Assembly: GCA_049322615.1 (NCBI GenBank)
Contig: JBMORX010000002.1
Coordinates: 11,171-75,170, forward strand
From: Patescibacteria group bacterium
GTDB lineage: Bacteria > Patescibacteriota > Microgenomatia > CAYGWK01
DNA: 64,000 nt
Direction: 5' to 3'
In this document: in pieces, positions 8,324 through 55,087 of the stretch
How positions within the stretch are numbered: position 1 is the stretch's first letter
Layout: every line of letters begins with the position of its first letter
Program-made: the position numbers and the translations under genes
Notes under the pieces: model-generated
Databases searched by the model: none
What the model was told of the DNA's origin: nothing
The model's input: the letters and a program-made list of their open reading frames with translations, nothing else

Positions 8324-9433
8324 ATGGTAATACTAGGAATTGAAACTTCCTGTGACGAGACGGCAGCCGCCGTGGTGGAAGACGGGACAAAAATTTTGGC
8401 AAACGTCGTTGCCTCCTCGGTTGAGCTGCACAAAAAAACCGGGGGAATTATTCCCGAAGTCGCCGCTCGGGAGCAGATAAGATGCATTATTCCGGTAATT
8501 GAAAACGCCTTAAAAGATACTAAGATACTAGGATACTACGATACTAGGCGATTAAAAAAAGAAAAATCACTTAATATCTTAGTCTCTCGGTATCCTAATA
8601 TCATCGATGCCATCGCCGTCACCGTTGGTCCTGGCTTAATCGGCTCGCTTTTAGTTGGCGTCGAGACGGCCAAAACCCTCGCCTGGATTTGGAATAAACC
8701 AATTATTCCTGTAAATCACCTAATCGCCCATATTTATGCCAACTGGCTTTCCTCACCCGCACAACTCACCCCTGACTCACCACCCACTTCTCACCCTCAT
8801 CCTCAATTCCCTCTTATAGCTCTAGTTGTTTCCGGCGGACACACAGATTTGGTTTTGATGAAAAATCATGGAAAAATAAAATGGCTCGGGGGGACCAGGG
8901 ATGATGCCGCCGGTGAATGCTTTGATAAGTGTGCTCGAGTTTTAGGATTAGGATACCCTGGCGGACCAGCCATCGCCGCCACGGCGGCCAAATTACAAAT
9001 TACAAATTACAAATTACAAATTAAATTACCTCGTCCCATGATTGAAGAGAAAAATTTTGATTTTAGTTTTTCAGGACTTAAGACCGCAGTTATTCGGGAA
9101 GTATCACGAGTATCAAAAGTATCACAAGTATCAAAGGAATTGTCTTTTGAAATTCAAGAAGCAATCACCGATGTTTTAGTGGAAAAAACCATTCGGGCAG
9201 CAGGAAAATTTAAAGTCAAATCTATTCTTCTTGCCGGCGGGGTTGCCGCCAATTCCCGCTTGCGAGAGAAATTTCAATCCCATCCCCTAATTACTAATTA
9301 CCAATTACTAATTCCACAACCGCAGTTGTGTACCGACAACGCCGCCTACGTTTCCTCTTTTGCTCATTTCAACTTCAAACCAATTCCTTGGAGACGAGTA
9401 ACGGTCAAACCCGGACTAGAAATCACCCAATGA
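8324..9433 (+). CDS. tsaD: tRNA N6-adenosine threonylcarbamoyltransferase TsaD (Kae1/Gcp family)
   Basis: The N-terminus 'ILGIETSCDETAAAVV' is present, and the conserved 'VSGGHTDL' and 'FSFSGLKTAV' motifs follow. It contains three in-frame short-tandem-repeat segments at 8519-8550, 8993-9027 and 9107-9142. Confidence 0.85.
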   Translation: MVILGIETSCDETAAAVVEDGTKILANVVASSVELHKKTGGIIPEVAAREQIRCIIPVIENALKDTKILGYYDTRRLKKEKSLNILVSRYPNIIDAIAVTVGPGLIGSLLVGVETAKTLAWIWNKPIIPVNHLIAHIYANWLSSPAQLTPDSPPTSHPHPQFPLIALVVSGGHTDLVLMKNHGKIKWLGGTRDDAAGECFDKCARVLGLGYPGGPAIAATAAKLQITNYKLQIKLPRPMIEEKNFDFSFSGLKTAVIREVSRVSKVSQVSKELSFEIQEAITDVLVEKTIRAAGKFKVKSILLAGGVAANSRLREKFQSHPLITNYQLLIPQPQLCTDNAAYVSSFAHFNFKPIPWRRVTVKPGLEITQ

Positions 9434-10065: not shown

Positions 10066-12306
10066 ATGGACAAAGTATATAATCCCAAAACTGTCGAAAA
10101 ACGCATCTATCAGATGTGGGAAAAGTCTGGGGCTTTCTCCCCAAAGATTAAAAAGGGCAAAAAACCATTTTCTATCATCATGCCTCCACCAAATGCCAAT
10201 GCTCCCCTTCATATTGGTCATGCCAGATTTGTCGCCATTCAAGACCTTTTAATCCGTTTCCACCGCATGCTAGGCGAGCCTTCTTTGTGGCTTCCCGGAG
10301 CAGACCATGCGGGAATTTTAACCCAGGTTGTTTTTGAAAAAAAACTAAGCCTCGAGGGCAAAACCCGCTTTGATTTAGGCAGAGAAAAATTTTATCAAGA
10401 GATTTTCAAGTTTTCCCAAGAAAACAAACAGACAATGTATAGCCAAATGCGCGCCCTGGGTGCTTCCTGTGACTGGAAAAGAGAAAAATTCACCTTAGAC
10501 CCTGAAATTTCCAAAATTGTTCTTGAGACTTTTATCAAAATGTTTAACAGAGGCTTAATTTCCCGAAGTGAACGAATTGTCAATTTTTGCCCTCGTTGCC
10601 AAACTGCCCTATCGGATTTAGAGATTGAACACAAGGAAGAAAAAACAAAACTTTGGTTTATCCGCTATGTTTTTAAAAACGAGGACAAATTTCTGACAGT
10701 CGCCACCACCAGACCAGAGACTATGCTTGGAGACACGGCCGTAGCCGTTAACCCAAGGGACAAAAGATATAAAGAGGTAGTGGGCAAAACTGTGGTCTTA
10801 CCCTTGATGCTTCGGGAGATCCCCATCGTTGCCGATGAAGCCGTTGACCCCGAATTTGGGACCGGAGCGGTCAAGGTTACCCCAGCCCATGACCCGATAG
10901 ATTTTGAAATTGGCCAAAAACACAATCTTGCCTCAATCCAAGTTATTGGCTTTGATAATAAAATGACCAAAAGGGGAGGTAAATATGCAGGACTGCCCAT
11001 CTTGGAAGCCAGGAAAAAAATAATTCAGGATTTGGAGGTTAAAGGGCAACTTGAGAAAGTTGAAGATTATATTCATTCAGTTGGTCATTGCGAACGCTGC
11101 AAAACCATTATTGAACCGCAAGTTTCTTTACAGTGGTTTGTCAAAACTAAACCATTGGCAAAGGAGGCGCTTTCGGTCGTTAAAAGCAAAAAAATCAAAA
11201 TCATCCCTCAAAGATTTGAAAAAATTTATCTTTTGTGGATGAAAGACATTCGCGACTGGTGCATTTCCCGCCAACTTTGGTGGGGACATCAAATCCCAAT
11301 TTGGTACTGCGGGGGAGAAAACTTATCCCCTCTTCAAAAATTAATGAACCCAGAATTGGCGAAACCCCACGACTTAGGCTGTGGAGAGATTATTGCTTCG
11401 GTTGAAAAACCAAAGACTTGTCCAAAATGCAAAAACAAAAATTTAATCCAGGATCCAGATACCTTAGATGCCTGGTTCTCCTCAGGTCAGTGGCCCTTCA
11501 CTACCTTAGGCTTCCCAGATTCACCTGACTATAAATATTTCTATCCCACCACTGTCATGGAAACAGGTTATGAGATTTTGTTTTTCTGGGTCGCTCGAAT
11601 GATTATGCTTGGTATTTTTCGAACAAAAAAAGTTCCTTTTGAAACCGTTTTTCTCCATGGGTTAGTCAGAGACGCTTTCGGTCAAAAAATGTCAAAAAGT
11701 AAAGGCAATGTCATTGACCCCTTAGATGTAATTAAGCTCTACGGCACTGATGCTTTGCGAATGGCTTTGCTTTATGGCTCAACTCCAGGCAAAGACCTGG
11801 CTTTATCTGAAGAAAAAATAGAAAGCATGAGAAATTTTGCTAATAAAATCTGGAACGCCAGCCGATTTGTAATCGGCTATACGAATGTATCCCAATTAAA
11901 AATAATCCAAATGAATAATCCGAATAATATTCGGATTAAAAATTCGGACAATTTACATTCGGATAAATTCGTATCCGATGATAAATGGATTCTTGAGGAA
12001 CTAAGTAAAACCACCAAGTCTATCACTGAAGATATTGAAAAATTCAGGCTTGGTCAGGCTGCCGAAGAATTATATGAATTTTTCTGGCACAAATTTTGTG
12101 ATAGATATATTGAATCTACCAAAGCACGCCGAGACGAAGCTCAACCAACCCTGCTTCAGGTCTTGGAAACCAGCCTCAAACTCCTCCACCCTTTTATGCC
12201 TTTTATCACTGAAGAAGTCTGGCAGACTGCCAGAGCAAAGAAAGAAATAAAGAAAGCGAAGTTTTTTAAAGAGAAATTATTAATCACTGCCAAATGGCCA
12301 AAATAA
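10066..12306 (+). CDS. valS: Valyl-tRNA synthetase (short form lacking the C-terminal coiled coil)
   Basis: 'PPPNANAPLHIGHA' is the HIGH region and 'KMSKSKGNVIDP' is the KMSKS motif. There is an in-frame palindromic 'attcgga' repeat insert at 11885-11990. Confidence 0.75.
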   Translation: MDKVYNPKTVEKRIYQMWEKSGAFSPKIKKGKKPFSIIMPPPNANAPLHIGHARFVAIQDLLIRFHRMLGEPSLWLPGADHAGILTQVVFEKKLSLEGKTRFDLGREKFYQEIFKFSQENKQTMYSQMRALGASCDWKREKFTLDPEISKIVLETFIKMFNRGLISRSERIVNFCPRCQTALSDLEIEHKEEKTKLWFIRYVFKNEDKFLTVATTRPETMLGDTAVAVNPRDKRYKEVVGKTVVLPLMLREIPIVADEAVDPEFGTGAVKVTPAHDPIDFEIGQKHNLASIQVIGFDNKMTKRGGKYAGLPILEARKKIIQDLEVKGQLEKVEDYIHSVGHCERCKTIIEPQVSLQWFVKTKPLAKEALSVVKSKKIKIIPQRFEKIYLLWMKDIRDWCISRQLWWGHQIPIWYCGGENLSPLQKLMNPELAKPHDLGCGEIIASVEKPKTCPKCKNKNLIQDPDTLDAWFSSGQWPFTTLGFPDSPDYKYFYPTTVMETGYEILFFWVARMIMLGIFRTKKVPFETVFLHGLVRDAFGQKMSKSKGNVIDPLDVIKLYGTDALRMALLYGSTPGKDLALSEEKIESMRNFANKIWNASRFVIGYTNVSQLKIIQMNNPNNIRIKNSDNLHSDKFVSDDKWILEELSKTTKSITEDIEKFRLGQAAEELYEFFWHKFCDRYIESTKARRDEAQPTLLQVLETSLKLLHPFMPFITEEVWQTARAKKEIKKAKFFKEKLLITAKWPK

Positions 12307-12926
12307 GAAAAGATATTAAGATACTAAGATATTTAGAAATTAAGAGTAAAATTAACCCGTGGTTGGAGAACAAAATCCAGAGGATAAGAAGCCTTAGGGA
12401 GCGCCAGGCTTACCGGTCAGCCAAAAGATGGGGGGCGCCGGCGGGAGTGGCTTTGATTTTATTTCTCATCCTTTATTCTTTTTTTCTTCCCAAAGATAAA
12501 TTTCAACTGGCTCGGGAACGGGTTTTGAAGAATCCAAATGATTTAGAGGCTCATTTAATTTTGGCTGAAGAATTTTTGAAAAATAATGAACTGGATAAAG
12601 CCGAAAAAGAACTGCTCGCCGCCCAGCAAATTCAGCAATCTAGCAATCTAACAATTGAACAATCAAGAGTTTTAGGTTTAAGTTCAAGGCTTGAAGAATT
12701 ATATTTAAAATATCAAGAGGAAAATCCTCAAGAACTCAAGAAATTAATTGAAAAATGGGAAAAAATTGTTTCCGAAACTCCTTCCTTTCGCGACGGCTAT
12801 CTCAAACTTTCTCTTTACTATTTCAAGCTCGGTCAAACCGAAAAAGCCCAAGAAAATCTCCAAAAAGCCCTGGAACTTGATCCAAATTATGAGGAGACGA
12901 GAAAACTCGAAAATCTCATAAAGTAA
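12294..12926 (+). CDS. TPR-repeat protein with one TM helix
   Basis: A TM segment 'GVALILFLILYSFFL' is followed by TPR-like repeats ('LAEEFLKNNELDKAEKEL', 'YYFKLGQTEKAQENLQKALELDPNY'). Confidence 0.5.
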   Translation: MAKIRKDIKILRYLEIKSKINPWLENKIQRIRSLRERQAYRSAKRWGAPAGVALILFLILYSFFLPKDKFQLARERVLKNPNDLEAHLILAEEFLKNNELDKAEKELLAAQQIQQSSNLTIEQSRVLGLSSRLEELYLKYQEENPQELKKLIEKWEKIVSETPSFRDGYLKLSLYYFKLGQTEKAQENLQKALELDPNYEETRKLENLIK

Positions 12927-12968
12927 AATCTATAATCTAAAATCTAAAATCTTTAGATTTTACTTTCT
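12927..12968. terminator. AT-rich hairpin serving as a bidirectional rho-independent terminator between convergent genes
   Basis: 'gtaaaatct...agattttac' is a 9-bp inverted repeat with a T-run, lying between the stop at 12926 (+) and the stop at 12997 (-). Confidence 0.4.
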
Positions 12969-12996
12969 ACTTAATCAAGAAACCTAATAATTAATT

Positions 12997-17622: not shown

Positions 17623-19553
17623 TATTTTTTGATGAAATCTGCTCTGACTATCAGATCAGACGACAAGGTTGTATTATAAATGATTAGCCCTTCTCCCGTC
17701 AAGGCAGGAGGTTGAATTTCTCTCAAGATCCATCCTTGAGGATAAGTAATTGATAAGGCAAAATTGTCTTTTTGGCTTCCTGATTGTTTTTGAACAAAAA
17801 GAATGTATTCTTCCCAGCTTTCAGTTTCTGGAAGAGTGTAGGAAATTTCAACCTTTCGCCTCTCCCCAACCGGAACCTCAACCAAAAATCCAAAAACAGT
17901 TCTTTGGTGCTCTTCTTCCACTTCCCACTTCCCACTTCCCACTTCCTCATTGGTAAAAAGATTTTTTATCGACAAGCTATCAACAAGACTGTCCTCGGGA
18001 ACATAGATTCGGAGATAGGTCTTATATCTTCCCGCCGGAAAAATTTCCGAGGGACTTTGGTTTTCATAATTTATTACTAATCGCTCGCTAATTTTTCCCT
18101 CCTCGCCAATTTTAATACTTTGCTCAAGACTTCTTTTTAAGAAATAGTTGCTTTTATTCACTCCGACATTTGCCTCAACAACCATTAGATAATCCTCCAA
18201 GCACTTCGCCCTTTCCGCTTCGCACTTCGCCCTTTTTATCCCGCCGTCCCAGTTAAATTTTGCCAAAAGAAGGGCTACCTGCGGCTCATCCAAAAAAACC
18301 ATCATATCTTTTTCCTCAAGAGATGTAAAAAAAGCCTGGGTAACTTTAAATAAGGTTTTCTCATCAGCAGTCTTGATTTTCTCAAAAAGGACTCTTCCCA
18401 CCTGACCTAAGAAATCTTGTTTACCGGTTGAGCCCGGAAAGAATCCTGCTTCGGAGTAGTATTCTGCTCTCTCAAAAAAATTTTTTGAATTGATTTTTTC
18501 CTGATAATCTGGTAACTCTATCTCGCCAATACTCTCTAAGATTCTTTGAGCCACGGTTAAATTAATGCCTACAACTCCGTCAACTGTTCTTCCAATCTCT
18601 TTATCAAGAAACCATTTCGCTCTTTGGGCAGAGGTGGGAAAATCTGGATCCCAATTTGAATCCCTCAAATACCAACCGGCAGTCCCTAAGAATTCCTTAA
18701 GCTTTGGGGGGGGCTCAACATGACCTTTGAGTTGTCCGTCAGCAAAATAAACATCCTGAATTTCAAAATCCAAAAGCCGACCCCTTTCCAGGGTCAAAAG
18801 ACCAAAAGAGCCAATAAATCCTCCAGAGGGTCTTATCTCCATATTATTTTGAAAAAGTACAAGATAGGTTTTGCGTTCCTTTATTCCTAAAATTTCCGGA
18901 ATAATTTCAATCACTTCTTTAGCAATAATTAAGGTTCTTCGCATTTGGGGCAAGGCAGTCTTTGCTTTTAGAATATAAGGACCAACCAAAAATTCTTTAC
19001 CAGAAAATTCATTTAGAAGTCCCTGACTAAGTGAGGTTTTTTGATAAGCCTCCTCAAGGGAAAATTTAATGTTAAGCAAACTTTCTTCAAGGGAAAAATC
19101 TTCTCCAGATAAGACTTTTTTGAAAACCTTCTCTCCCTCTTGGGCGATATTGGCTATCTGATAAAGGCTTTCAGCAAAGCTCTTGCCAAAAAGAAAAAAA
19201 TTTTGGGATTTCGAAACTTTTTCTTCAAGACCAAAAAGACTAAACGCAGGATTTGAAACCTCTAAGAATTTCAGGGTTCGACCAAGACTACCCTGAAGAC
19301 TTTTCGAGTGTGTTTTTAGCTTAGTTAGATCTTGGGTTTGAATTGCTTTTTGAATTTCCCCAAATCCCAAAAATGAACTAAAAAGATTAAAGCCCAAAAA
19401 AATTAAAGGTGAAGAAATTATCAATAAGAGTAAAATGGCAAAGAAAAATGTGATTTTTTTCTTTTTTTGCTCGGGAGGTTTCTCCTCCTTGAGGAATTCT
19501 TCTGCCCTGTGAAAAATATCTTCAGGTTCTTGAAAATTTTCTGTTTTAAACAT
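17622..19553 (-). CDS. DUF4012-like membrane-anchored extracytoplasmic protein
   Basis: An N-terminal TM helix is followed by the 'GGFIGSFGLLTLERG' motif. It carries in-frame repeat inserts at 17919-17947 (cacttcc x4) and 18201-18235 (gcacttcgcccttt x2). Confidence 0.45.
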   Translation of the reverse strand: MFKTENFQEPEDIFHRAEEFLKEEKPPEQKKKKITFFFAILLLLIISSPLIFLGFNLFSSFLGFGEIQKAIQTQDLTKLKTHSKSLQGSLGRTLKFLEVSNPAFSLFGLEEKVSKSQNFFLFGKSFAESLYQIANIAQEGEKVFKKVLSGEDFSLEESLLNIKFSLEEAYQKTSLSQGLLNEFSGKEFLVGPYILKAKTALPQMRRTLIIAKEVIEIIPEILGIKERKTYLVLFQNNMEIRPSGGFIGSFGLLTLERGRLLDFEIQDVYFADGQLKGHVEPPPKLKEFLGTAGWYLRDSNWDPDFPTSAQRAKWFLDKEIGRTVDGVVGINLTVAQRILESIGEIELPDYQEKINSKNFFERAEYYSEAGFFPGSTGKQDFLGQVGRVLFEKIKTADEKTLFKVTQAFFTSLEEKDMMVFLDEPQVALLLAKFNWDGGIKRAKCEAERAKCLEDYLMVVEANVGVNKSNYFLKRSLEQSIKIGEEGKISERLVINYENQSPSEIFPAGRYKTYLRIYVPEDSLVDSLSIKNLFTNEEVGSGKWEVEEEHQRTVFGFLVEVPVGERRKVEISYTLPETESWEEYILFVQKQSGSQKDNFALSITYPQGWILREIQPPALTGEGLIIYNTTLSSDLIVRADFIKK

Positions 19554-19563
19554 TTTGTTTCGA

Positions 19564-20058
19564 CTAACGTGAAACTGCGTTAAGACTTTGATTAATTAAA
19601 GTGTCGGCAATTTTGTTTTGTCGCCGAGAAATTAAATGGTAAAAAATTTTTCTGTCAACTTTTTGTTCGAGAGCTCTTGTTTGAATAATTAAACTGCGCA
19701 GTTTTGCGTCTTTAATTTTAAAGCGACCGTTAAGTTGATTAACCACTAGTTGAGAATCTAAAAAGAAGTGGATTTGGGGTGAGGATGAGAGGTGTGAAGT
19801 GGGTTCTTTTTTCTCACTTCGCACTTCCTGACTCACTTCCCATTTCTCACCCCCACCCTTATAACCCGACCTACTGCTTACAACCCATCCCAATGCCTCA
19901 ATCACTGCCTGATATTCGGCGACGTTATTAGTCGTCTTACCAATCCTCTTTGAAAACTTATAAATAATCTTTCCATTTTCTAAAACCACAAAAGCAACAG
20001 CCCCAGGCCCTGGATTTCCCCGTGAACCTCCATCGCAATAAATTGAGATTTTTTTCAT
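19564..20058 (-). CDS. rnhA: Ribonuclease HI
   Basis: 'CDGGSRGNPGPGA', 'NNVAEYQAVIEAL' and 'DSQLVVNQLNG' are present. An in-frame insert of ~30 aa is encoded by a palindromic GGTGAG/CACTTC element at 19768-19860. Confidence 0.8.
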   Translation of the reverse strand: MKKISIYCDGGSRGNPGPGAVAFVVLENGKIIYKFSKRIGKTTNNVAEYQAVIEALGWVVSSRSGYKGGGEKWEVSQEVRSEKKEPTSHLSSSPQIHFFLDSQLVVNQLNGRFKIKDAKLRSLIIQTRALEQKVDRKIFYHLISRRQNKIADTLINQSLNAVSR

Positions 20059-20475: not shown

Positions 20476-21774
20476 CTAAAAGATTTTACCACGAGTTTTA
20501 ATGATTTCAACCAGGGTTTTGGGGAAAGTAAAAGATGGTTTAAGGCTAAATTTCCGGGCTAAATAAGCACTGGTTAAAATTAAAACCAAACCTTCGGTGG
20601 CGATGGTAACGACAGCGGCAGCAATATACGAATAACGGGGAATAAAAACTAAATTAAGAACAACGTTCCAAACCAAAGCGATGATGGCAACTGCTAAAGA
20701 AACTTTTTGTTTTCCTAAAGCAATTAAAGAATAACCAGTCAAATGATTAAAATAGGCAAGAAAGGTGGCAAAAACCAAAATTCGCAAGGCGGTGATACTT
20801 TGGGAAAACTGGGGACCGCCAATAATGGCAATCACCAGTGGGGCAAAAATAAAAACTAAAAAAACCAGGATGGTTCCAGCCAGGAATAAGACATCAAATG
20901 ATTTTTTATAAATCAGTGTTAATCTGTCGCTTAATCCGCGCTCATCAGCATACTTAGAAATTATGGGAAAGAGAGCATTCATTAAATAAGCCGCTCCTAA
21001 TATCAAATTCTCATGAACCTTATAAGCCAAACCATAAATCCCCACTGGGGTTGAGCCCTTAAATCCTTGAAGAATGATGATATCAATTCGGTTGTAAATT
21101 GTAAAAAGCATAAGCAGGGCACCAGTTGGTAAAGATTCCCAAAAAATTTTTTTGATAAGTTTACTCTCAATTTTAAAATTAAAACTGGTCACTCTCCGGG
21201 CAAGAATTAACCCAAGGATAGCCGCTATTGTCGAAGAGAGAGTTAAACCAAAAAATATTATTTTTAAACTTAAAGAAAATTTTAAAATTAAAAGTAAAAA
21301 CAGTAAAAAAAGTCCGCTTGAAACAAGTTCTATCATGGCGATATTTTCAAAATGAAGTTTTGTTTGAAAAATAATGTTGCAAGAAGTTCGAATTGATAAA
21401 AAGAAAATCAAGGCTGAGGCTATTGTTGTCGGTAAAACCAGGGTTTCAAATTTGGGAACAAGACGAATTAGAAAATTAATAATTAAAAAAGAGACAGTCG
21501 CTAAAAACAAACGAAAAAGCAGGGCATTACCAAAAATTTTTTCTTCTTCGGTTTTACCTTTGGCTGCTTCTCTGACAGAAATCATCCCTGATCCCCAATC
21601 AGAGATCGAAACAAAAAGCATCACCAAGGCAAGAATAAAAACATAATTTCCGAAGCCTTCGGTTCCCAGGCTTCTAGTTAAAATGGCGGTGATTAGAATG
21701 GTAATAAAAACCACTCCAGCTCGACCCAAAATCTGGACGATGGTATTTAAGGCGACTCTTTGGAAGAGGTTCAT
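20476..21774 (-). CDS. Polysaccharide biosynthesis flippase (MOP/Wzx family)
   Basis: 432 aa with ~12 TM helices and the Polysacc_synt N-terminus 'LFQRVALNTIVQILGRAGVVFITILI'. Confidence 0.6.
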   Translation of the reverse strand: MNLFQRVALNTIVQILGRAGVVFITILITAILTRSLGTEGFGNYVFILALVMLFVSISDWGSGMISVREAAKGKTEEEKIFGNALLFRLFLATVSFLIINFLIRLVPKFETLVLPTTIASALIFFLSIRTSCNIIFQTKLHFENIAMIELVSSGLFLLFLLLILKFSLSLKIIFFGLTLSSTIAAILGLILARRVTSFNFKIESKLIKKIFWESLPTGALLMLFTIYNRIDIIILQGFKGSTPVGIYGLAYKVHENLILGAAYLMNALFPIISKYADERGLSDRLTLIYKKSFDVLFLAGTILVFLVFIFAPLVIAIIGGPQFSQSITALRILVFATFLAYFNHLTGYSLIALGKQKVSLAVAIIALVWNVVLNLVFIPRYSYIAAAVVTIATEGLVLILTSAYLARKFSLKPSFTFPKTLVEIIKTRGKIF

Positions 21775-23093
21775 GATTTTATTTTACCCCAGGCTAGACC
21801 AAAAACAATTGTTGCCAAAAGTTGGTTTTGCTGGAGAGTAAGCCAATAATGATCAACCACTCCTGTCAATAAAATCGCCAGGAGTGGAATTACCAATTTC
21901 AAATTTCCAATTTCCAATAATTTTCTAAAAGTTAAAACCAAAAACCAGAGAAAAATTAAAAATCCTGCCATGCCAGTCTCAGCCAAAATTAAAAGATAGA
22001 TATTGTGAACTGGCTGAAGAAAGCGAATAGAGCCAGTTTGCCAATACTCTGGCAGGCGAACAACAAAATTATTCAAACCCACACCAGATAAAAGATTCTC
22101 TTTGATCATTAAAATAGCCACTTTAATTAATTGAAGTCGCAGGATTACTGGTTCGTCAGCGAGGAAACCAGGATTGAAAAACAAAACTAACCCAGTTAGC
22201 AAAAGCAAGACGGAAAAAGTAATTAGTAAATAGTAATTAGTAATTTGGGGGCTAATCTTCCGCTTCCTCCATATTCCATACGCCGTAAACCATAGGCCAG
22301 CCAGCAAACCCACTAGCCAGACAGAGTGCGAGAAAGAAAGGACTAGGGCTGAAAATCCTAGAATAAATACCAATGACCAATAGCTCTTAATTATCCAATC
22401 ATTTAATTGTCCAATTTCAAATTTCAAATTTGTTAATTTGTTGATTAGTTGATTAGTTGATTTGGAATTCCCGAGGAGCAAAATTAAAGCAACGAGGATA
22501 AATCCCGCTAGGGAATTCGGGTGAGAAAAAGTTCCGTATGGTCGCAAAAAGAGTCTTCCACCCAAATCGGCTAAAGCAATTCCTGGGGTCTGAACATTAA
22601 AACTTCGCTCGCCTAACCAGTAAAATATTCCCCCCAAAGAGGCTTGTTTAAAAAACTGGGCAAGAGCAATTAAAGAAGAGTAAATAATGGCTAAAGTAAT
22701 TGGTAATTTGTAATTAGTAATTAGGAGGTTGTTTTTGGCAACATATAATCCCAATAAACTAAATTCAGTAATTTTGACAAGTTTATAAAAAGCAGCACCT
22801 TGATTTTGAGCAAGAAGGGCATTAAACAGTAGAAAACAGAAAACAGAAAACAGAAAAATCAGGCTTTTTGAATTTTGCTTTGTAATTTTGATTTTTGATA
22901 TTTGATATTTGATTTTCTCTGCTATCCAAAACCCCAAAGTCAGAATCACTAAAATATCTGTCAAATAAATTGTCGGGCTCAAATAATCTACCCTTATCCC
23001 AAAAACCAAAGAAAAATCTGGCCAAAAATGTTTACCCAACTGGGTGGGTAAAAGAAGAATTAAAAACCAAAACAAAATTTCATGGAGTTTCAC
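21771..23093 (-). CDS. O-antigen ligase / Wzy-like polytopic membrane protein
   Basis: 440 aa, multi-TM. Several in-frame AT-rich tandem repeats lie at 22190-22250, 22380-22470, 22690-22730 and 22835-22925. Confidence 0.45.
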   Translation of the reverse strand: MKLHEILFWFLILLLPTQLGKHFWPDFSLVFGIRVDYLSPTIYLTDILVILTLGFWIAEKIKYQISKIKITKQNSKSLIFLFSVFCFLLFNALLAQNQGAAFYKLVKITEFSLLGLYVAKNNLLITNYKLPITLAIIYSSLIALAQFFKQASLGGIFYWLGERSFNVQTPGIALADLGGRLFLRPYGTFSHPNSLAGFILVALILLLGNSKSTNQLINKLTNLKFEIGQLNDWIIKSYWSLVFILGFSALVLSFSHSVWLVGLLAGLWFTAYGIWRKRKISPQITNYYLLITFSVLLLLTGLVLFFNPGFLADEPVILRLQLIKVAILMIKENLLSGVGLNNFVVRLPEYWQTGSIRFLQPVHNIYLLILAETGMAGFLIFLWFLVLTFRKLLEIGNLKLVIPLLAILLTGVVDHYWLTLQQNQLLATIVFGLAWGKIKS

Positions 23094-23616: not shown

Positions 23617-24469
23617 TTTTAACTTTTAATTTCGCCACCCAAGGCGACAGTCCTCCCCAACCGCTGGTGAAATACTGCTGAACAAGTTGAAAGGCGGAAA
23701 AAATAAACCAGTAAAGAATAAGCCCGGAAGGGAAAGTAAAACCAATCAGAATTGTCATCAAGGGAAAAAGGTAAAGCATCTGTGACTGCATCGCCGTGGC
23801 TACATCATCAGTTTTTTCTGGGGTTTTTTGCGCCTCTTTTTCTTCTTTTCGGAGAGCAGGTTGCATCATTTTTGAAGACAAAAATTGGGTTAGGGCGGCG
23901 AAAATTAAAAATATTCCAGGCAAAGGCAGCCCTTGGAAATGAAAAACATCAGGTTTTGAAAGGTCTAAATATAAAAAAGAAAGATTAATTTTTGTTTCCA
24001 GGGGTAAGCGTAGGGCTGGATACAAAATTTCATTAAGGCGAGAGATTATCTCAACCCCATTGGCGCGTAAAACTTGGGCAAAAGCCTGATATAAAGCAAT
24101 TAAAATTAAAAGTTGAATTATTTGGGGAAGACAGCCGGCGGCTGGATTTACCCCTTTTTGCCGGTATAGCTCCATCTGGGCTTGGGCAAATTTTTGTTTA
24201 TCTCCACCATGTCTCTTTTTAAGTTTCTCAATTTCCGGAGCTAGTTCTGCCATTTTTTTTGCCGCCTTAAGCGAGGGAGCCGTTAGGGGAATCAAAACTG
24301 CCCTAATTGCCAAGGTTAAAATTATTATCGCCACCCCCAAGTTTCCAAAGAATTTATAAAGGAGAATAAGCCCATTAACTAGGGGGTGGAATAAAAATAA
24401 ATTCCAAATTTCTGCCATAAAAATTTTAAATAGTAAATTGAAAATAGTAAATATACATAGCAAATTCAA
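23606..24469 (-). CDS. yidC: Membrane protein insertase YidC (short form)
   Basis: 'NPAAGCLPQIIQLLILIALYQ' is the conserved YidC TM2-3 region. It sits in the rnpA-yidD-yidC operon. Confidence 0.8.
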   Translation of the reverse strand: MNLLCIFTIFNLLFKIFMAEIWNLFLFHPLVNGLILLYKFFGNLGVAIIILTLAIRAVLIPLTAPSLKAAKKMAELAPEIEKLKKRHGGDKQKFAQAQMELYRQKGVNPAAGCLPQIIQLLILIALYQAFAQVLRANGVEIISRLNEILYPALRLPLETKINLSFLYLDLSKPDVFHFQGLPLPGIFLIFAALTQFLSSKMMQPALRKEEKEAQKTPEKTDDVATAMQSQMLYLFPLMTILIGFTFPSGLILYWFIFSAFQLVQQYFTSGWGGLSPWVAKLKVKNEK

Positions 24470-24529
24470 AATCTTTTTCTTTTTGAATTTTTAAATGCAT
24501 TTTTGATATTTAATTTTTGCTATTTACTA

Positions 24530-24766
24530 TTAATCAACCGGATCATATCCGCCCTTATTCCAGGGATGACATCTTAAGATTCTTTTTAACCCTAACCAAC
24601 TTCCCAAAAGTATACCATATTTTTCAATTGCCTGATAGCAATATTCAGAACATGAGGGCTGAAATCGACAAACCTTGTCAGTTAAAAAAAGAGCCTTGGC
24701 CAGACCGCAGTTGAAAGAAAGATATTTTTGATAAAAGCGAATTAAAGAAAGGAAAATCTTTTTCAT
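24530..24766 (-). CDS. yidD: Membrane protein insertion efficiency factor YidD
   Basis: '[18 protein letters not shown]' and '[13 protein letters not shown]' are present. Confidence 0.8.
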
Positions 24767-25104
24767 TTAAACAAACCAGCTTTTTTAAAAATTTTCTCCA
24801 CCTCGCCAGAAATCTCCAAAAATGATTTGTCTAAGATTTCTCTTTTCCCTAAAATAATTATGTCGAATCCAGGTTTTGTGCGGAAGAGAATTTTTCTAAC
24901 TGCTTCCCGTAAAATTCGTTTAGTCCTATTTCTTAAAATTGCTTTTTTAGAAATTTTAGTTGAGATAATAAAGCCAAGTCTGGAAAAATTATTCCCGGTT
25001 TCTAAGACTAATGTTCCAAACCACTTCCCCTGAAATCTTTTACCTTTTTCTTTGACCAAATCAAAATCTTCTTTTTTGATTAAGCGGTTTATCTTAGGAA
25101 GCAT
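24763..25104 (-). CDS. rnpA: Ribonuclease P protein component
   Basis: 113 aa, basic. '[13 protein letters not shown]' is the RnpA N-terminus. It sits between rpmH and yidD. Confidence 0.75.
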
Positions 25105-25204
25105 AAATAAAACAAAATCCTAATATCTAAATCCTAAACAGTTTTGGAAAATTTGAATTTAGAATTTAAAATTTGTTTGGGATTTCGGATTTCGTGCTTA
25201 GAAT

Positions 25205-25342
25205 TTATAATGAAATTCTTTTTCTCTTCTTCAATTTTCTTCTCTTCAAAACTTTTTTTCCACCACGCACTTTCATTCTCGCCCGAAATCCGTGCTTTCT
25301 TTTTCTTTTTAATTTTTTTGGCTGATAAGTTCTTTTCGGCAT
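25205..25342 (-). CDS. rpmH: 50S ribosomal protein L34
   Basis: Manual translation of the minus strand gives '[45 protein letters not shown]'. It is absent from the ORF track because it is shorter than 60 aa. Confidence 0.8.
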
Positions 25343-25394
25343 ATGATTATAAAAATTATAACAATTATAAACATTATAACGCAAACTTTCCCTA

Positions 25395-25424
25395 TTGACA
25401 ATTGTGGATAATCTCGGTTATTAT
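25395..25424 (+). promoter_or_regulatory. dnaA promoter with an overlapping consensus DnaA box
   Basis: TTGACA at 25395-25400 and TATTAT at 25419-25424. A perfect DnaA box (TTATCCACA on the minus strand) lies at 25403-25411 in the spacer, consistent with autoregulation. Confidence 0.5.
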
Positions 25425-25470
25425 CATTTCAGGTTTTTTTCTCCTGCCCATCTCTGCACCATCCACTGTT

Positions 25471-26808
25471 ATGGATACTAAAAATCTTTGGCAGCAAGTC
25501 CAAGAAGAATTAAAAATTTCCGTCTCTAAGGCAATTTTTCAAACCCTCTTTCAAGGAACCTCTTTGGTCTCTTTAAAAAATAACGTCGCTACTATTGGTT
25601 GCCCCAGTTCTTATATCCAGGGGTTAATTGAGACAAGGTATTACAGCCTAATTAAAGATATTCTTGATAGAAAAACAAATAAAGACAACAGTTTAGTTTT
25701 TGTGGTTCGCTTGCTTTCAACTAATGAGAAAAAAAGCTTGGGTCCTCTTTTTGAAAAAGAAAAAGAGTTTGTTTCCTCTGTTTCAACCTGTGGTCTGCGA
25801 CCTGATTTTACTTTTGAAAATTTTTGTGTTTCTTCAGTTAACCAACTTCCCTATGCGGCGGCGACAGCGGTTGCCCGAAACCCTGGAGACGCTTATAACC
25901 CTCTGTTTCTCTGGGGAGGGGTTGGGGTTGGTAAAACTCATTTAATGCAAGCCATCGGGCACGAGATTTTAAAAAATCATCCTCAAACAAAAGTAATCTA
26001 TTGTATGGGAGAAGAATTTACCAACGAAATAATTCAGGCTATCCGCTTAAAAACGACTGATGTTTTTAAGAAAAAATATCGCTCAGCCCAAGTGTTGCTT
26101 TTGGACGATGTTCAGTTTATTGCTGGTAAAACCACGGTTCAAGAAGAGTTTTTCCACACCTTCAACGCAATTCAAAGAGAGGGCGGGCAAATTGTTTTAG
26201 TCTCAGACCGACCGCCAGAGGAAATCTCAAAACTTGAGGAAAGACTAAGATCAAGATTTGAAGGAGGACTAATTATTGACATTCCCGTTCCGGACTTTGA
26301 ACTAAGATCAGCCATTCTTTTGACTAAGGCAAAACAAAGAGGAATAAATTTACCAATGGATGTAGCCCAGATTGTTGCTTCAAACATTGACTCAACCAGA
26401 AAGTTGGAGGGGTTTTTGATTAGACTTCAAAACGAATCAGAAACTAAAAAAATCCCTATTTCTCCAGAACTTGTTCAATCTCTTTTGGGAAAGGCAATTG
26501 AAACCCAAGAATTAAAGAAAATTTTAAAACCAAAAGAAATAATTGAAATTGTCGCTAGCCATTTTAATCTCAAAATTGGTGACCTTAAAGGTCAAAAAAG
26601 AATAAAAAAATTTGTCTTCCCAAGACAAATTTCAATGTACATTCTCCGAACCGAGGCAAACCTACCCTTGATGACAATTGCCGAACTTTTGGGAGGAAGA
26701 GACCATACCACCATTATGCACGGTGTGGAAAAAATTACCAAACTACTTTCAGAGAATGAGGATTTGAGAGTGGATATTTCGGGGATTAAACAAAAATTAT
26801 ATTCTTAA
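25471..26808 (+). CDS. dnaA: Chromosomal replication initiator DnaA
   Basis: 'GGVGVGKTHL' (Walker A), 'LLLDDVQF' (Walker B) and the C-terminal HTH 'ISMYILRTEANLPLMTIAELLGGRDHTTIMH' are present. The start is set at MDTKNLWQQ (25471), not the track start at 25402. Confidence 0.9.
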   Translation: MDTKNLWQQVQEELKISVSKAIFQTLFQGTSLVSLKNNVATIGCPSSYIQGLIETRYYSLIKDILDRKTNKDNSLVFVVRLLSTNEKKSLGPLFEKEKEFVSSVSTCGLRPDFTFENFCVSSVNQLPYAAATAVARNPGDAYNPLFLWGGVGVGKTHLMQAIGHEILKNHPQTKVIYCMGEEFTNEIIQAIRLKTTDVFKKKYRSAQVLLLDDVQFIAGKTTVQEEFFHTFNAIQREGGQIVLVSDRPPEEISKLEERLRSRFEGGLIIDIPVPDFELRSAILLTKAKQRGINLPMDVAQIVASNIDSTRKLEGFLIRLQNESETKKIPISPELVQSLLGKAIETQELKKILKPKEIIEIVASHFNLKIGDLKGQKRIKKFVFPRQISMYILRTEANLPLMTIAELLGGRDHTTIMHGVEKITKLLSENEDLRVDISGIKQKLYS

Positions 26809-26992
26809 TTTTATGAAACTTTACACTTTTCCACAATTTACTTGCTTTTTTCAACAAATTTGTCCACACTTCGGCAAGCTCAGTGTAAACACAAAAATAA
26901 CCCAAAGACTATGAAGAAATCGCTTAATTTTTACACTTTTCAACAATTTCTACTACTATTGCTACTAATTAAAATATGGTAAAATTTAAGCA
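26809..26992. promoter_or_regulatory. Putative oriC: DnaA-box cluster with an AT-rich unwinding region in the dnaA-dnaN spacer
   Basis: TTTTCCACA at 26827-26835 and TTGTCCACA at 26859-26867. A ~24-nt direct repeat 'tttacacttttc[c/a]acaattt' occurs at 26819-26843 and 26929-26953, and an AT-rich tract at 26950-26990. Confidence 0.5.
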
Positions 26993-28108
26993 ATGAAAAT
27001 TTCGGTCTTGCAGGAAAATTTAAGTAAAGGGCTTTCAATTGTTTCAAGATCAGTCGCCTCAAAAGCAACTCTCCCAGTTTTGGGAAATATTTTACTCTCA
27101 ACAGACAAGGGAAGGCTAAAACTGCAAGGAACAAATTTAGAAACCGGAATTTCCCTTTTATGTGGAGCCAAAATTGAAGAAGAAGGAGAAATTACAATCC
27201 CTGCTCGGATTCTTGTAGAATTTGTTTCTTCTTTACCACCAGAGAAAATTGATCTTGAGACCTCTAAGACCACTCTTCGTATTTCCTCTGGTTTTTTTAA
27301 GGCAGAAATAAATGGAATTGCCTCAAGTGAATTTCCTAAAATTCCTTCTTTTCCAGATAAACCTGATTTAACTTTTGAGAAAGAAGAACTCATTAGGGCT
27401 TTATCTCAAGTTGACTTTGCCGCTGCTTCTGACGAGAGTCGGCCGGTCTTAACCGGTGTCTTGCTAAAAATTGAAAAAGAAAAAGTTTCCCTGGTGGCAA
27501 CAGACGGCTATCGTCTTTCCATAAAAAATCTGAAAGTAAAAGAACAGAAATTAGAAGGAAACCTTCTTGTTCCGGCGAAAACCCTGCTTGAAATCTGCCG
27601 AATTGCTCAAGAAGTTTCGGATGAGGAAAAAGAAATCAAGATGGCCCAAAATCCTGAAAAAAGCCAAGTGGTTTTTGACCTTGCCGATATTGAACTTTCT
27701 TCAAGACTCCTTGAAGGAGAATTTCCAGAGTTTGAGAAAATAATTCCTAGTACTTCTTCTACTAAGGCAGAGTTTGCTAAAGAAGAATTTTTGCGAGCAA
27801 TAAAAATTGCCTCAATCTTTGCCAGAGAGCAGGCAAACATTGTTAAGTTGAAAATTGGGGAAGGGAAAATGATTATTTCCGCCGAAAGCCCTCAAGTTGG
27901 TTCAAACCTTGGAGAAATTGAGGCTAAAACCGAAGGCGAAGAGCTTGAAATCGCCTTCAATTTTCGCTTTTTGCTTGACTTTTTAAATTCACCAATTGGC
28001 GAAGAAATTATTTTTGAAGCCTCAAGCCCTCTTTCCCCCGGAGTTTTTAAAATAAAAGGTGACGATTCTTTTCTTCACCTCATCATGCCGGTTCGGATTC
28101 AGGCTTAA
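26993..28108 (+). CDS. dnaN: DNA polymerase III beta subunit (sliding clamp)
   Basis: 371 aa. 'MKISVLQENLSKGLSIVSR' is typical of DnaN and there are three clamp domains. Confidence 0.85.
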   Translation: MKISVLQENLSKGLSIVSRSVASKATLPVLGNILLSTDKGRLKLQGTNLETGISLLCGAKIEEEGEITIPARILVEFVSSLPPEKIDLETSKTTLRISSGFFKAEINGIASSEFPKIPSFPDKPDLTFEKEELIRALSQVDFAAASDESRPVLTGVLLKIEKEKVSLVATDGYRLSIKNLKVKEQKLEGNLLVPAKTLLEICRIAQEVSDEEKEIKMAQNPEKSQVVFDLADIELSSRLLEGEFPEFEKIIPSTSSTKAEFAKEEFLRAIKIASIFAREQANIVKLKIGEGKMIISAESPQVGSNLGEIEAKTEGEELEIAFNFRFLLDFLNSPIGEEIIFEASSPLSPGVFKIKGDDSFLHLIMPVRIQA

Positions 28109-30708: not shown

Positions 30709-32568
30709 TTAGGTTAATTGTGGTTCTACAGGTTTAGTTTGTGAAATCGGTTCCTGAACTTGTTCTTGTTGCATTCTTAATAATTCTTCTGGTTTTGAAG
30801 TAATCAGCCTATGTTCATCAGGTGAGGCAATAACTTGAATGGCGACGTGATTGGCGCCGGCAAAAAATAACCCTTCGCCAACATTGGCCGCCAAAAGTAA
30901 ATGTTTTTCGCCCTCGGAAAGATAAAAAACCTGAGCCACCTTATCAATGGCGGCCGGTGACTGTTTCATTAAAACCTGAATTGAAGAGTTGGTGACAATT
31001 GCCTTACCGTAATCAGAGCCCAAAAAATCCTCAACATCCTGGGTAGTCGTCGTTAGTCCCAGGAAGTATTTTCTTGCTCTTTTGGCAATTGAATATAAAA
31101 AGGTGGCCGAGTCCGGATATCTCATTAAATACCAAGCCTCATCAACAATAAGAATTCTTTTTTTCATTTCCTTTCTTATTTTTGTCCAGATAAAGTCAAG
31201 GATTATAAACATGGCAATTGGACGGAGAGCCTCCTCCAGGTTTTTTAGAGAAAAAACCGTAAAAGTATTTTTGATGTCAATATTTGACCTTTGGTCAAAA
31301 ATACCCACAAATGAGCCTTTGACAAATTTTTCAATTCTATCCGCCAAACCCTTGGCTTCCGGCTCTTCCATGCCAATTAAAGCTTTGTATAAATCCTCCA
31401 TCAAGGGCGGTTCATTTTTTTGGGTCGCCGGTTCAGGAGTGATTCCCTTCATTTTGTAGGTTAAAACCAGGGCGCGATCTAAGGTTGCTTCTTCAGAGGC
31501 AGAGAGTTGTCCCATAATGACTTTAAAAAGTGAATGAAGAGATAAAATTTTCAAGCCCAGTTCGTTTTCGCCTTCCTCATAAACGGTTGATAAATCAAAG
31601 GGATTAATTTTAGCCGGTTCATTAAAGCCAAATTGAATGTATTCGCCGCCAATCGCCTGGCAAAGAGTTTTGTATTCAGCCTCTGGATCAATTATTAGAA
31701 TTTCCGTGCCAAACATCAAGGAGCGCAGAGCCTCAAGTTTGACCAGGTACGATTTACCGGATCCGCTTTTGCCAAAAATCACCGAGTTGGCATTCTCTAA
31801 AGTAAACCTGTCAAAAATAATTAAACTTCCGTTGTGCTCGTTTAAGCCATACATTATTCCCTCATTAGCCGTTAGTTCCGAGGAAGTAAAAGGAAAGGTT
31901 GAAGCCAAGGAGGTGGTGTCCATATTGCGGGTAATTATTAGTTTGTCAACGCATAAAGGCAGAGTGGTCTTAAAGCCATCCTCCATCTGGAGGGTTGCGT
32001 GTTTTGAGATAATTAAAAGGGCCCCTAAGGCGGACTCAACTTGTTTTGAAAGATGATTTAACTCCTCCAGGGAGTCAGCCGGAATAGTGATATAAAGACC
32101 AAACTGGAAAAAGCGTTCGATTCCCTTAACCAGCTGTTCTTGTAAAGCCCGGGCATCCTCAAGTTTGGCTTGAGTTTGAGGGTCAATAATTTTCCCCTGT
32201 TGAATATCGGTTGAGATTTCCGCCTCCATTTCCGTAATTTTTCGGCGCAAATCGTCAAGGACCGTCTTTCCCTCAACCGGATAGACAAACATCGAGATAT
32301 CAAGCGAATGGTCAAAGGTGATTAGGGGCGAGAGCCAATTGGCAGAGACAAATCTTGGATAGCCGGCGACAAAAAGAGTCCGAAAATAGGTATTGTTGAT
32401 TTTTATATAGTCAAAATCAACCTCAATTGCCGAAGGAGCAATAACATCTTGGACGGAGACCATTCCTTGACCAAGCCTAAGACCGCTATCGGAAATTGGG
32501 ATTTTTACTTGATTTTCTCCTTGACCGTTTGTCCGCTGATTGGCGGATTTAAAAAATGGTAAGTTCAT
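30709..32568 (-). CDS. Type IV secretion ATPase VirB4/TraC/PrgJ-like (C-terminal ATPase part)
   Basis: 'IFGKSGSGKSYLVK' is the Walker A and 'RILIVDEAWYLM' the Walker B motif. Confidence 0.7.
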   Translation of the reverse strand: MNLPFFKSANQRTNGQGENQVKIPISDSGLRLGQGMVSVQDVIAPSAIEVDFDYIKINNTYFRTLFVAGYPRFVSANWLSPLITFDHSLDISMFVYPVEGKTVLDDLRRKITEMEAEISTDIQQGKIIDPQTQAKLEDARALQEQLVKGIERFFQFGLYITIPADSLEELNHLSKQVESALGALLIISKHATLQMEDGFKTTLPLCVDKLIITRNMDTTSLASTFPFTSSELTANEGIMYGLNEHNGSLIIFDRFTLENANSVIFGKSGSGKSYLVKLEALRSLMFGTEILIIDPEAEYKTLCQAIGGEYIQFGFNEPAKINPFDLSTVYEEGENELGLKILSLHSLFKVIMGQLSASEEATLDRALVLTYKMKGITPEPATQKNEPPLMEDLYKALIGMEEPEAKGLADRIEKFVKGSFVGIFDQRSNIDIKNTFTVFSLKNLEEALRPIAMFIILDFIWTKIRKEMKKRILIVDEAWYLMRYPDSATFLYSIAKRARKYFLGLTTTTQDVEDFLGSDYGKAIVTNSSIQVLMKQSPAAIDKVAQVFYLSEGEKHLLLAANVGEGLFFAGANHVAIQVIASPDEHRLITSKPEELLRMQQEQVQEPISQTKPVEPQLT

Positions 32569-33290
32569 GGTATTTTTTTCTCCATTGCCGGTTGGACAAA
32601 AGGGGTAGTATATTCCTGACCGGCGGCTAGTTTTTGAAATCCCAAAGAGGGGTTGTAGATATCATAAAAAAGCTGGATTGCCTCCTGGGTTGAAACCTCT
32701 CTGGTTTTTAAGCCTAAACGGTTAAACTGTCTTGAGAGATGATCGCGTTTTGGATAAAGATTCATTTTTGCCCGTTCTAGAATATAATCTTTGGGATATG
32801 GAAGACCCTTTTTTCTTTGCAAAACCTGTCCCAGCGCTTGGGTGGCGCCAAGCTCCAAAGTCGAAAAGGGGATAACCACATAAAAACTTTTATCCAAAAC
32901 ATTATTTTTTTTAACCGTGTCTTCAACAAATTTTTGGTATTTTTTCATTTGTTCTGCCAAAAGTTTATTTACCTGTTTTGAGATTTCTCCTTCTAAAAGT
33001 TTTAAATAAGAGGTAACGTCCTTTCTTTTTGAACGGATAACAATTTCAATTGGAAAAGTTAAGGAATTCAAAAGGGCAGCATAGGCGAAGATTAAGGCAT
33101 CTTGCTCTTTTTCGGACAGAAGACCAAAGTTAATCGCCGTCGTCGCCAAAATTAGACAGCATGAGCCGTCTTTTAAAATAACAATATTATCTTTAATATC
33201 CTCAATTTCCAAGTGTTCTTGGGTTGAGGCGCGGATGGGAATTTTTAAGGGATCAGGCATAGTTAAATAAGCAAATAAGCAAATAAGCAA
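32565..33290 (-). CDS. VirB4 N-terminal-domain-like protein (split VirB4)
   Basis: 'VILKDGSCCLILATTAINFGLLSEKEQDALIFAYAALLNSL' resembles the CagE/TrbE/VirB4 N-domain. It overlaps the ATPase ORF by 4 nt. Confidence 0.4.
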   Translation of the reverse strand: MLICLFAYLTMPDPLKIPIRASTQEHLEIEDIKDNIVILKDGSCCLILATTAINFGLLSEKEQDALIFAYAALLNSLTFPIEIVIRSKRKDVTSYLKLLEGEISKQVNKLLAEQMKKYQKFVEDTVKKNNVLDKSFYVVIPFSTLELGATQALGQVLQRKKGLPYPKDYILERAKMNLYPKRDHLSRQFNRLGLKTREVSTQEAIQLFYDIYNPSLGFQKLAAGQEYTTPFVQPAMEKKIP

Positions 33291-33368
33291 ATGACAAATG
33301 ATGAATTTGATACTTGAAATTTGTAATATTTGGAATTGATTTGTTTATTTGTCATTTGTAATATTTGT

Positions 33369-49331: not shown

Positions 49332-49335
49332 TTCA

Positions 49336-49797: not shown

Positions 49798-49798
49798 T

Positions 49799-52116: not shown

Positions 52117-52267
52117 TAAAATAAATTTGTTGCTGCGCAATAAAATAATAAAAATAGTAGATTGAAAATAGTAAATAGTAAAAAGACATTTTAAATTTAA
52201 AATTTTCAATGTAAATTTGCAATTTACTATTTAATTTTTACTATTGAGCGACTGAAAGGAGCGATTC

Positions 52268-54992: not shown

Positions 54993-55087
54993 AAACGAAA
55001 AGAGAAAAATGACAATTAAAAATCCCAAAATTTTTTAATTTTACATTGTAATTTTTAATTTTTATATTTTAATTTTTCATTTTCTTT

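Follow-up and report, generated by a model that had tools for sequence, protein, structure and literature searches.

We have analysed a 64 kb stretch of DNA (64,000 nucleotides, hereafter the window) from the metagenome-assembled genome of an uncultured Patescibacteria group bacterium (contig JBMORX010000002.1). Its rnhA gene, which codes for a type-1 ribonuclease H (RNase H), carries in frame a hairpin of about 95 bases whose arms resemble the inverted repeats of a four-helix-bundle (4HB) gene cassette located elsewhere in the window. It is likely that this segment is an intervening-sequence-like (IVS-like) hairpin cassette, internally deleted and devoid of its open reading frame (ORF), which was copied into rnhA without classical transposition and is tolerated there as a passenger loop of the protein.

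The rnhA hairpin and the 4HB cassette

The rnhA gene (positions 19564–20058, minus strand) is an open frame of 164 residues, identified by Pfam and by homologs in the PDB. Pfam matches its product to RNase_H/RVT_3 in two separate stretches, residues 1–57 and 95–156, and the solved RNase H1 structures 3u3g and 3hst align in the same way, with 13 residues where the window RnhA has 38. Asp9, Glu48, Asp101 and Asp152 are invariant in an alignment of 18 sequences (the window protein and 17 homologs); the type-1 fold with its four catalytic carboxylates (D, E, D, D) is thus recovered by Pfam, the PDB homologs, the alignment and a confident model alike. Residues 59–94 (VSSRSGYKGGGEKWEVSQEVRSEKKEPTSHLSSSPQ; codons at 19777–19884, minus strand) replace an ortholog loop of about 12 residues, as seen in both the protein and the DNA alignments. 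The nine nearest homologs (P0002–P0010 in our numbering, in which P and L numbers are our own handles; 62–77% identical) are only 135–141 residues long, with a loop of about 12 residues, and lack the segment. The preliminary description of this DNA had reported an open rnhA with its catalytic motifs kept and about 30 extra residues at a site where such proteins are normally contiguous. The open frame, the motifs and the insert are all borne out by the ortholog alignment, but the net gain is 24 residues (36 in place of about 12), and the site is not contiguous elsewhere: every homolog has a variable loop there, of 12–15 residues.

The element proper lies at 19772–19864, close to the bounds first given (19768–19860), and it is a hairpin, as had been proposed. 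Its arms of 28 nt are 79% complementary, and the minimum free energy calculated for its RNA is −35.6 kcal/mol for the sense strand (z-score −2.6) and −42.2 kcal/mol for the plus strand (z-score −4.9), compared with a z-score of +1.0 for the corresponding region (the empty site) of the nearest ortholog, L002. Arm A (19815–19864, minus strand), the G-rich 5′ arm in the messenger RNA (mRNA) sense, is full length, with a GAGTCAGG core and inner units. Arm B (19772–19805, minus strand), the C-rich 3′ arm, is truncated, and only the part outside the GGGTC core is left. Between them, the A-rich spacer AGAAAAAAG (19806–19814, minus strand) forms the loop; A-rich loops are likewise found in the hairpins of L004, L005, L006 and tsaD. 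Of the three sense frames of the element only one is open, and it is the rnhA register, so that the frame is unbroken, as claimed (one of the three antisense frames is open as well).

In the AlphaFold2 model of RnhA the core has a predicted local distance difference test (pLDDT) score above 90, whereas residues 65–91 score below 50 and have no secondary structure. This poorly defined insert falls between a helix (44–62) and a strand (95–100), and in this model the palindrome is accommodated in frame with the host fold preserved. The insert is probably translated as a disordered surface loop of about 30 residues, rich in G/E/K/W and then in P/S/T/H; the catalytic core presumably stays intact and the enzyme functional despite the loop.

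Two other readings of the hairpin were discarded. A scan with Rfam at gathering thresholds found no family at the element, and only a tmRNA and six tRNAs elsewhere in the window, which leaves an intron without support, while a consensus scan for terminators gave no terminator-like site at this hairpin. It should be noted that a general repeat search with a seed of 8 did not report it. As a separate observation, the sense strand at 19830–19880 contains four runs of at least three G (GGTCGGGTTATAAGGGTGGGGGTGAGAAATGGG) in the G-rich arm and its 5′ flank, and these might fold into a G-quadruplex, either in the mRNA or in the non-template strand of the DNA.

The cassette spans 48462–49003. Its left inverted repeat (IR-L; 48462–48527, plus strand) is an arm of type A (GAGAAATGGGAAGTGAGTCG), hit by our arm profile at 48471–48524, and its right inverted repeat (IR-R; 48921–49003, plus strand) is an arm of type B (GAGATGTGAGAAGTGGGTCG), C-rich on the plus strand; over 53 nt the two are 79% complementary. 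In the loop lies a 4HB gene (48528–48917, minus strand) of family PF05635 (23S_rRNA_IVP/S23p; Pfam E-value 2.4e-13). A full cassette of this kind consists of two inverted arms of about 50 nt, in which heptamer-like units (GGTGAG/GAAGTGG) surround a GAGTCGGG core; the arms enclose an A-rich leader and the PF05635 gene. Orthologs of the 4HB protein (P0122, P0126 and P0132; 64–74% identical) occupy the identical syntenic slot in other metagenomes, between a type IV secretion system (T4SS) pilin-like gene and uppS (pilin, 4HB, uppS), and their cassette flanks share the consensus TTTTAGGGTGAGGGTGAGAAATGGGAAGTGAGTCGGGAAGTGAGAAGTGAGG. Judged by this synteny, the full cassette is an old and fixed resident.

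Local alignment matches IR-L to the G-rich rnhA arm at 40 of 46 positions with a score of 62 (shuffled sequences: mean 19.4, standard deviation 3.7, maximum 38), and the reverse complement of IR-R to the other arm at 26 of 29, with a score of 43 (shuffles: mean 16.3, standard deviation 3.2, maximum 33). A 20-mer of the arm, searched with at most three mismatches, has five matches in the window where 0.03 would be expected. The upstream arms of orthologous cassettes are equally close to arm A (42/45 for L008 and 45/50 for L016), and the resident cassette can therefore not be named as the donor. With a profile constructed from 13 arms, arm A is the top hit (41.7 bits, although arm A is itself one of the 13 training sequences), and arm B is found at 19771–19805. 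When these 13 sequences are aligned, the outer boundary (TTTTA/TTATAAGGGTG...) and a non-periodic GAGTC(G/A)GG core are seen to be shared, and the arms fall into two types, A and B, in the correct order. Moreover, once the ORF is removed from cassettes in silico, the rnhA hairpin can be aligned over the resulting junction (arm A, leader, arm B), its spacer being colinear with the A-rich leader that separates arm A from the 4HB start codon. On these alignments, the rnhA hairpin is a cassette minus the 4HB gene and minus the inner half of one arm, with an IVS-like build. One local alignment had pictured it as a cassette minus exactly the ORF, which was rejected: the outer half of arm B is the better match to the 3′ arm, which places the end of the deletion inside arm B.

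Could the hairpin instead have grown in place, by slippage and expansion of heptamers in the rnhA loop, its likeness to the cassette arms reflecting a preference of the genome for heptamers? The surroundings lend themselves to it. Period-7 arrays are enriched in the window (12, versus 0–3 for any of the other periods between 4 and 15; shuffled sequences have about zero), and 12 of 23 looser arrays lie wholly inside ORFs. The loops of RnhA orthologs are themselves encoded by heptamers, and the DUF4012 gene adjoining rnhA contains in frame (GAAGTGG)×4, the same unit as in the arms (17915–17948, minus strand; 4.1 copies with 100% matches according to Tandem Repeats Finder; seven extra residues compared with the L002 ortholog). 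However, the likeness to the cassette is colinear over 46–55 nt and includes the non-periodic GAGTC(A/G)GG core, the order of GTGGG versus GTGAG, the outer boundary, the A-rich leader and the A and B arm types; slippage, for its part, yields direct repeats and not a palindrome with two arms. Local origin is already disfavoured on these grounds, and we consider it very unlikely.

The descent of the hairpin from a cassette is paralleled by an independent case. An ORF-less hairpin at 12918–12975, directly after the tetratricopeptide repeat (TPR) gene of the window, is made of TAAAATC/TATAATC units, and in L094, which has the same gene order (tsaD, valS, TPR), a full 4HB cassette stands there (5580–6072), its upstream arm being the same TAAAATC/TATAATC array. 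As far as these sequences go, the comparison shows that cassette and gene-less hairpin interconvert. Across five orthologous cassettes the complementarity of the arms holds at 69–77% while the arm sequences diverge, and 13 of 47 variable arm columns show at least two types of Watson–Crick pair; this fits selection for pairing and arm-to-arm conversion alike. We also observed that the type A and B arms are exchanged in the window cassette relative to L008 and L016, the 4HB gene keeping its orientation to its neighbours, which could reflect conversion between arms.

Other 4HB genes have other arms. A second PF05635 gene of the window (49388–49759, minus strand, within 49335–49799) is flanked by inverted repeats of AAAAGTC/AAAAATT heptamers (42 nt, 74% complementary), and the 4HB genes of L006, L011 and L092 each have an arm family of their own. 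The arm heptamer of L092, AATCATC, agrees with the array found in the loop of the rnhA gene next to it.

The RnhA loop in orthologs

In most RnhA orthologs of the clade, the loop that the insert replaces has a period of seven residues (for example QSPITNYQSPIT, SSIQYSIFSIQ and KQQTTNNKQHTT) and is encoded by tandem heptamers, such as (ACAACAA)n in L002 and (CAATCAT)n in L092. The preliminary description had overlooked that this loop is a recurrent heptamer-encoded target, just as it had overlooked that the cassette is an old fixed resident. Four orthologs, 52–59% identical to the window RnhA, also carry a hairpin in the loop: P0011, P0019 (L004), P0025 (L005) and P0027 (L006). The hairpin of L005 belongs to the GGTGAG family, with an arm identical at 36 of 37 positions to the B arm of L016, but it is inverted with respect to that of the window (score 50 reversed and 30 in the same orientation). 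Those of L004 and L006 are homologous to each other (score 120) and far from that of the window (23–35).

The presence of hairpins in the same loop of four orthologs, and the homology between two of them, are what would be expected if the clade ancestor already had such a loop, inherited vertically and lost or decayed in most lineages. Yet the nearest relatives (68–77% identical) have no hairpin, the carriers being at most 59% identical; the arm in the window scores 62–63 against cassette arms and only 24–31 against the rnhA hairpins of L004 and L006; the element of L005 stands in the opposite orientation; and most loops are direct seven-residue repeats rather than decayed palindromes. An ancestral hairpin is highly improbable in our opinion. 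The absence from the nearest relatives, the inversion in L005 and the dissimilarity of L004 and L006 argue instead for several independent colonisations of the rnhA loop, at the level of these sequences, rather than for one ancestral insert.

Smaller inserts are found in the same loop. P0028, P0037 and P0043 have an eight-residue peptide, KQSLLLRN, amid the heptamer array. In the rnhA genes of L092 (P0043; 1155–1604) and L093 (P0037; 56–502), a 21-nt insert, AAGCA(A/G)AGCTTGTTGCTACGC, which codes for KQSLLLR and is identical at 20 of 21 positions between the two, lies amid heptamer arrays that otherwise differ. The peptide PALPAGR recurs likewise, in RnhA (P0048, with the variant PALPRGE in P0078) and in TsaD (P0283 and P0297, with PALPAGK in P0293). 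Both inserts look like very small dispersed mobile repeats aimed at heptamer tracts, as far as can be judged from their sequences. Finally, the hairpin sites in rnhA (about 19885–19900) and in the tsaD gene of L094 (about 1895–1912) both come just after a helix ending in E-A-L-K/G, and the arm unit GAAGTGG is present in the ortholog codons at this helix end (GAAGCCCTGAAGTGG), whether through microhomology or by coincidence.

Related inserts and possible routes of copying

Within the window, the arm family is present at three loci only: rnhA, tsaD and the 4HB cassette. The tsaD gene (8324–9433, plus strand) contains a solo GGTGAG arm (8756–8809, minus strand; 46/55 to IR-L; 27.6 bits with the arm profile), whose C-rich strand, being the sense strand here, encodes SSPAQLTPDSPPTSHPHP, adding 14 residues compared with PDB entry 8iey. 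Similar peptides occur at the matching site in P0242, P0243, P0256 and P0266, and in L094 a GGTGAG-family hairpin with both its arms occupies site 1 of tsaD. Searched with the arm profile, the loci of the closest cassette relatives yielded no copy besides the cassettes themselves. When the GTDB representative genomes, which do not include the source genome, were scanned for GGTGAGAARTGGGNNGTGAGTC, the one match, in a helix-turn-helix gene of Bacteroidales, was due to chance.

How was the hairpin copied? The likeliest route would be that a cassette arm and the heptamer-repeat DNA by which the loop was already encoded underwent template switching or gene conversion, the 4HB gene being lost or skipped across the base of the stem during copying. 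Copies would survive only where the frame is kept in a permissive loop, which would explain why this one has been kept, and the element would be a tolerated, essentially selfish or neutral passenger. More speculatively, RNase III might cleave the mRNA hairpin, or ribosomes stall at it, with lower expression of rnhA as the result. Homology-assisted copying is favoured because we found no target-site duplication, no transposase in the window and no further copies in the loci of relatives, and because the cassette is fixed. More precisely, no duplication is seen at the copies in rnhA, L005 and L094 (boundaries read by eye and uncertain by a few nucleotides), and no transposase, reverse transcriptase or RAYT came to light in the 64 kb, where 64 of the 68 called ORFs were scanned with Pfam.

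The preliminary description had called the arm near-identical to IR-L, and the element a gene-less derivative of the cassette, resembling a miniature inverted-repeat transposable element (MITE), that had transposed into rnhA. The similarity survives a proper alignment, at only about 87% identity; the derivation also stands, the hairpin being homologous to both inverted repeats in order, but transposition is matched by neither a target-site duplication nor a transposase in the window. A bona fide MITE would require an enzyme whose gene lies outside the window to mobilise it in trans, perhaps with the aid of the 4HB protein and with a preference for heptamer arrays. Several features agree with this: the terminal inverted repeats have a conserved outer boundary (arms A and B), one family is found in different genes (rnhA and tsaD) and in both orientations, and the 21-nt inserts shared by two lineages indicate that some small elements do target heptamer arrays. 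Against it, the copy number in the window is very low, the full cassette is syntenically fixed across genomes in which the 4HB proteins are 64–74% identical, and the parent cassette encodes only a PF05635 protein, a family without known catalytic activity (PMC4990558), and no transposase. We regard a MITE as unlikely. A link with diversity-generating retroelements was also considered and dropped, no reverse transcriptase being encoded nearby. It had been raised by Avd, the accessory protein of these retroelements, which belongs to the same four-helix-bundle fold.

Several points weigh against the reading of the segment as a copied and tolerated cassette. The translation of the insert is inferred, and that all copies are in frame is partly an ascertainment effect, because ORF databases hold intact genes only. 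The scatter of the hairpin-bearing orthologs was judged from a neighbour-joining tree with only about 125 aligned residues. There is no clean empty site: the nearest relative has a different heptamer array at this position, so that insertion and replacement are inseparable. Finally, the copying mechanism is a conjecture, a transposase, absent from the window, may be encoded elsewhere in the genome, and the three loci are a count for 64 kb and not a copy number for the genome.

We may wonder whether the rnhA hairpin belongs to something broader. Heptamer-unit hairpin cassettes, with or without a 4HB (S23p) gene, might be an undescribed kind of mobile DNA of Patescibacteria that copies itself into the heptamer tracts coding for surface loops of essential proteins (RNase H, TsaD and ValRS), repeatedly, in either orientation and with no transposase found so far. 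The IVSs of ribosomal RNA (rRNA) would then be one manifestation of it, and targeting would be given by the 4HB protein or by the heptamer arrays. This is a tentative proposal, which we find rather doubtful. If it were true, heptamer-cassette copying would steadily supply new disordered protein loops to genomes that otherwise undergo strong reduction.

Other palindromes lie in frame in the same window. In tsaD, a GATACTA-type hairpin with an A-rich loop (8516–8602; z-score −4.8; about 21 extra residues compared with PDB entry 8iey) is unrelated to the GGTGAG family; a similar peptide stands at the matching site of P0244, P0247 and P0253, whereas the closest ortholog (P0241) has none. TsaD varies from 334 to 420 residues among the 120 close orthologs listed, with hairpin-type, heptamer-type and ‘PALPAGR’ inserts at two shared sites. 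The valS gene (10066–12306, plus strand) contains a near-perfect palindrome of 120 nt (11866–11985; RNA-fold z-score −5.8), which adds about 19 residues compared with the Thermus thermophilus ValRS (PDB entry 1gax) and falls between the catalytic and anticodon-binding domains. An ORF similar to Wzy_C/O-antigen ligase (21771–23093, minus strand) has six in-frame heptamer arrays (for example QITNYYLLIT, LITNYKLPIT and KIKYQISKIKI) and a hairpin at 22388–22455. Large intergenic hairpins of A/T-rich heptamers with no gene in the loop are found at 24422–24531, 33265–33384, 52153–52245 and 54979–55082; they may be further ORF-less cassettes, or terminators. The generic hairpin scan is noisy (93 real hits versus 18 in shuffles at scores of at least 40), and only hits scoring at least 42 were used, as examples.

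In the remainder of the window, rnpA, yidD and yidC are encoded by the minus strand of the replication-origin neighbourhood (24530–28108), dnaA and dnaN by its plus strand; cumulative GC skew is lowest at about 24–28 kb. Pairs resembling toxin–antitoxin or defence systems are located at 13–15.4, 34.6–35.9 and 58.9–59.6 kb (AbiEii; HEPN and nucleotidyltransferase; a YafQ/RelE-like toxin; Phd/YefM and a PIN-domain protein). Type IV secretion is represented by ATPases resembling coupling proteins (TrwB/TraD-type domains at 3–2159 and a TraG P-loop at 30709–32568) and by many T4SS_pilin paralogs.

Comparison with known palindromic and intervening elements

In the literature on Patescibacteria and the Candidate Phyla Radiation, we found no report of coding palindromes of this type. 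Protein-coding palindromes, described as a peculiarity of Rickettsia, gain an apparently unrelated family in Patescibacteria, and one loop of one enzyme is seen to be hit independently in different lineages. The heptamer-repeat tracts emerge as candidate landing pads, and the family offers a system for asking how hairpins spread without an evident transposase. Many length differences and ‘low-complexity’ loops in the housekeeping proteins of these bacteria, such as those of TsaD, are probably derived from repeats, and such inserts can mislead alignments, phylogenies and annotation.

The Rickettsia palindromic elements (RPEs) are palindromes found in frame in unrelated housekeeping genes, with 44 copies in R. 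conorii (Ogata et al., 2000, 2002, as summarised in PMC10969869). They share with the present elements a length of about 100–150 bp, a palindromic structure, the in-frame location in unrelated housekeeping genes, the addition of a peptide compatible with the fold and the absence of an encoded enzyme. They differ in phylum and in their many copies, compared with three loci in 64 kb; arms made of heptamer units are a feature of the elements described here. No gene-bearing parent of RPEs is known, whereas the rnhA element has a full-length parent with a PF05635 gene. The likeness to RPEs put forward in the preliminary description consequently holds as an analogy and not as membership. The GGTGAG-heptamer arm consensus bears no known resemblance to RPEs. 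The rnhA hairpin would represent a new family, probably unrelated, alongside the protein-coding palindromes of Rickettsia.

Cyanobacteria reportedly carry heptamer repeats (STRR) and small dispersed repeats, which Elhai et al. are said to have described in 2008. They too involve genomes rich in tandem heptamers and small hairpin-like elements nested in the arrays, sometimes in genes, and the 21-nt AAGCARAGCTTGTTGCTACGC inserts of L092 and L093 look like these nested repeats. The phylum and the sequences are different, and we know of no described link between STRR and 4HB cassettes.

Among other coding palindromes, those of Coxiella (QMITEs; PMC5896051), of Nematomorpha mitochondria (PMC6649704) and the PARCELs (PMC2996958) are likewise inverted repeats in frame in coding sequence with both arms translated. 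Their sequences and hosts are unrelated to ours, and none is known to derive from a 4HB cassette.

The closest parallel in construction is with the IVSs of the 23S rRNA of Coxiella and Leptospira, in which an inverted-repeat stem carries an S23p/PF05635 ORF in its loop, heptameric repeats precede the start codon and RNase III excises the element (PMC4990558). These IVSs lie in helices of 23S rRNA and are cut by RNase III, whereas the present copies are located within rnhA and tsaD and, for the cassette, between a pilin gene and uppS; the Rfam scan detected no rRNA gene in the window. Excision of the IVS type, without ligation, would destroy the message if it took place inside a coding sequence. 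The parent cassette (48462–49003) and its orthologs nevertheless share with IVSs a terminal inverted-repeat stem enclosing a PF05635 ORF, as well as heptameric repeats ahead of the start codon, and ORF-less versions exist in both. The S23p/4HB intervening elements thereby gain a life outside rRNA, with a gene-bearing parent that is still recognisable.

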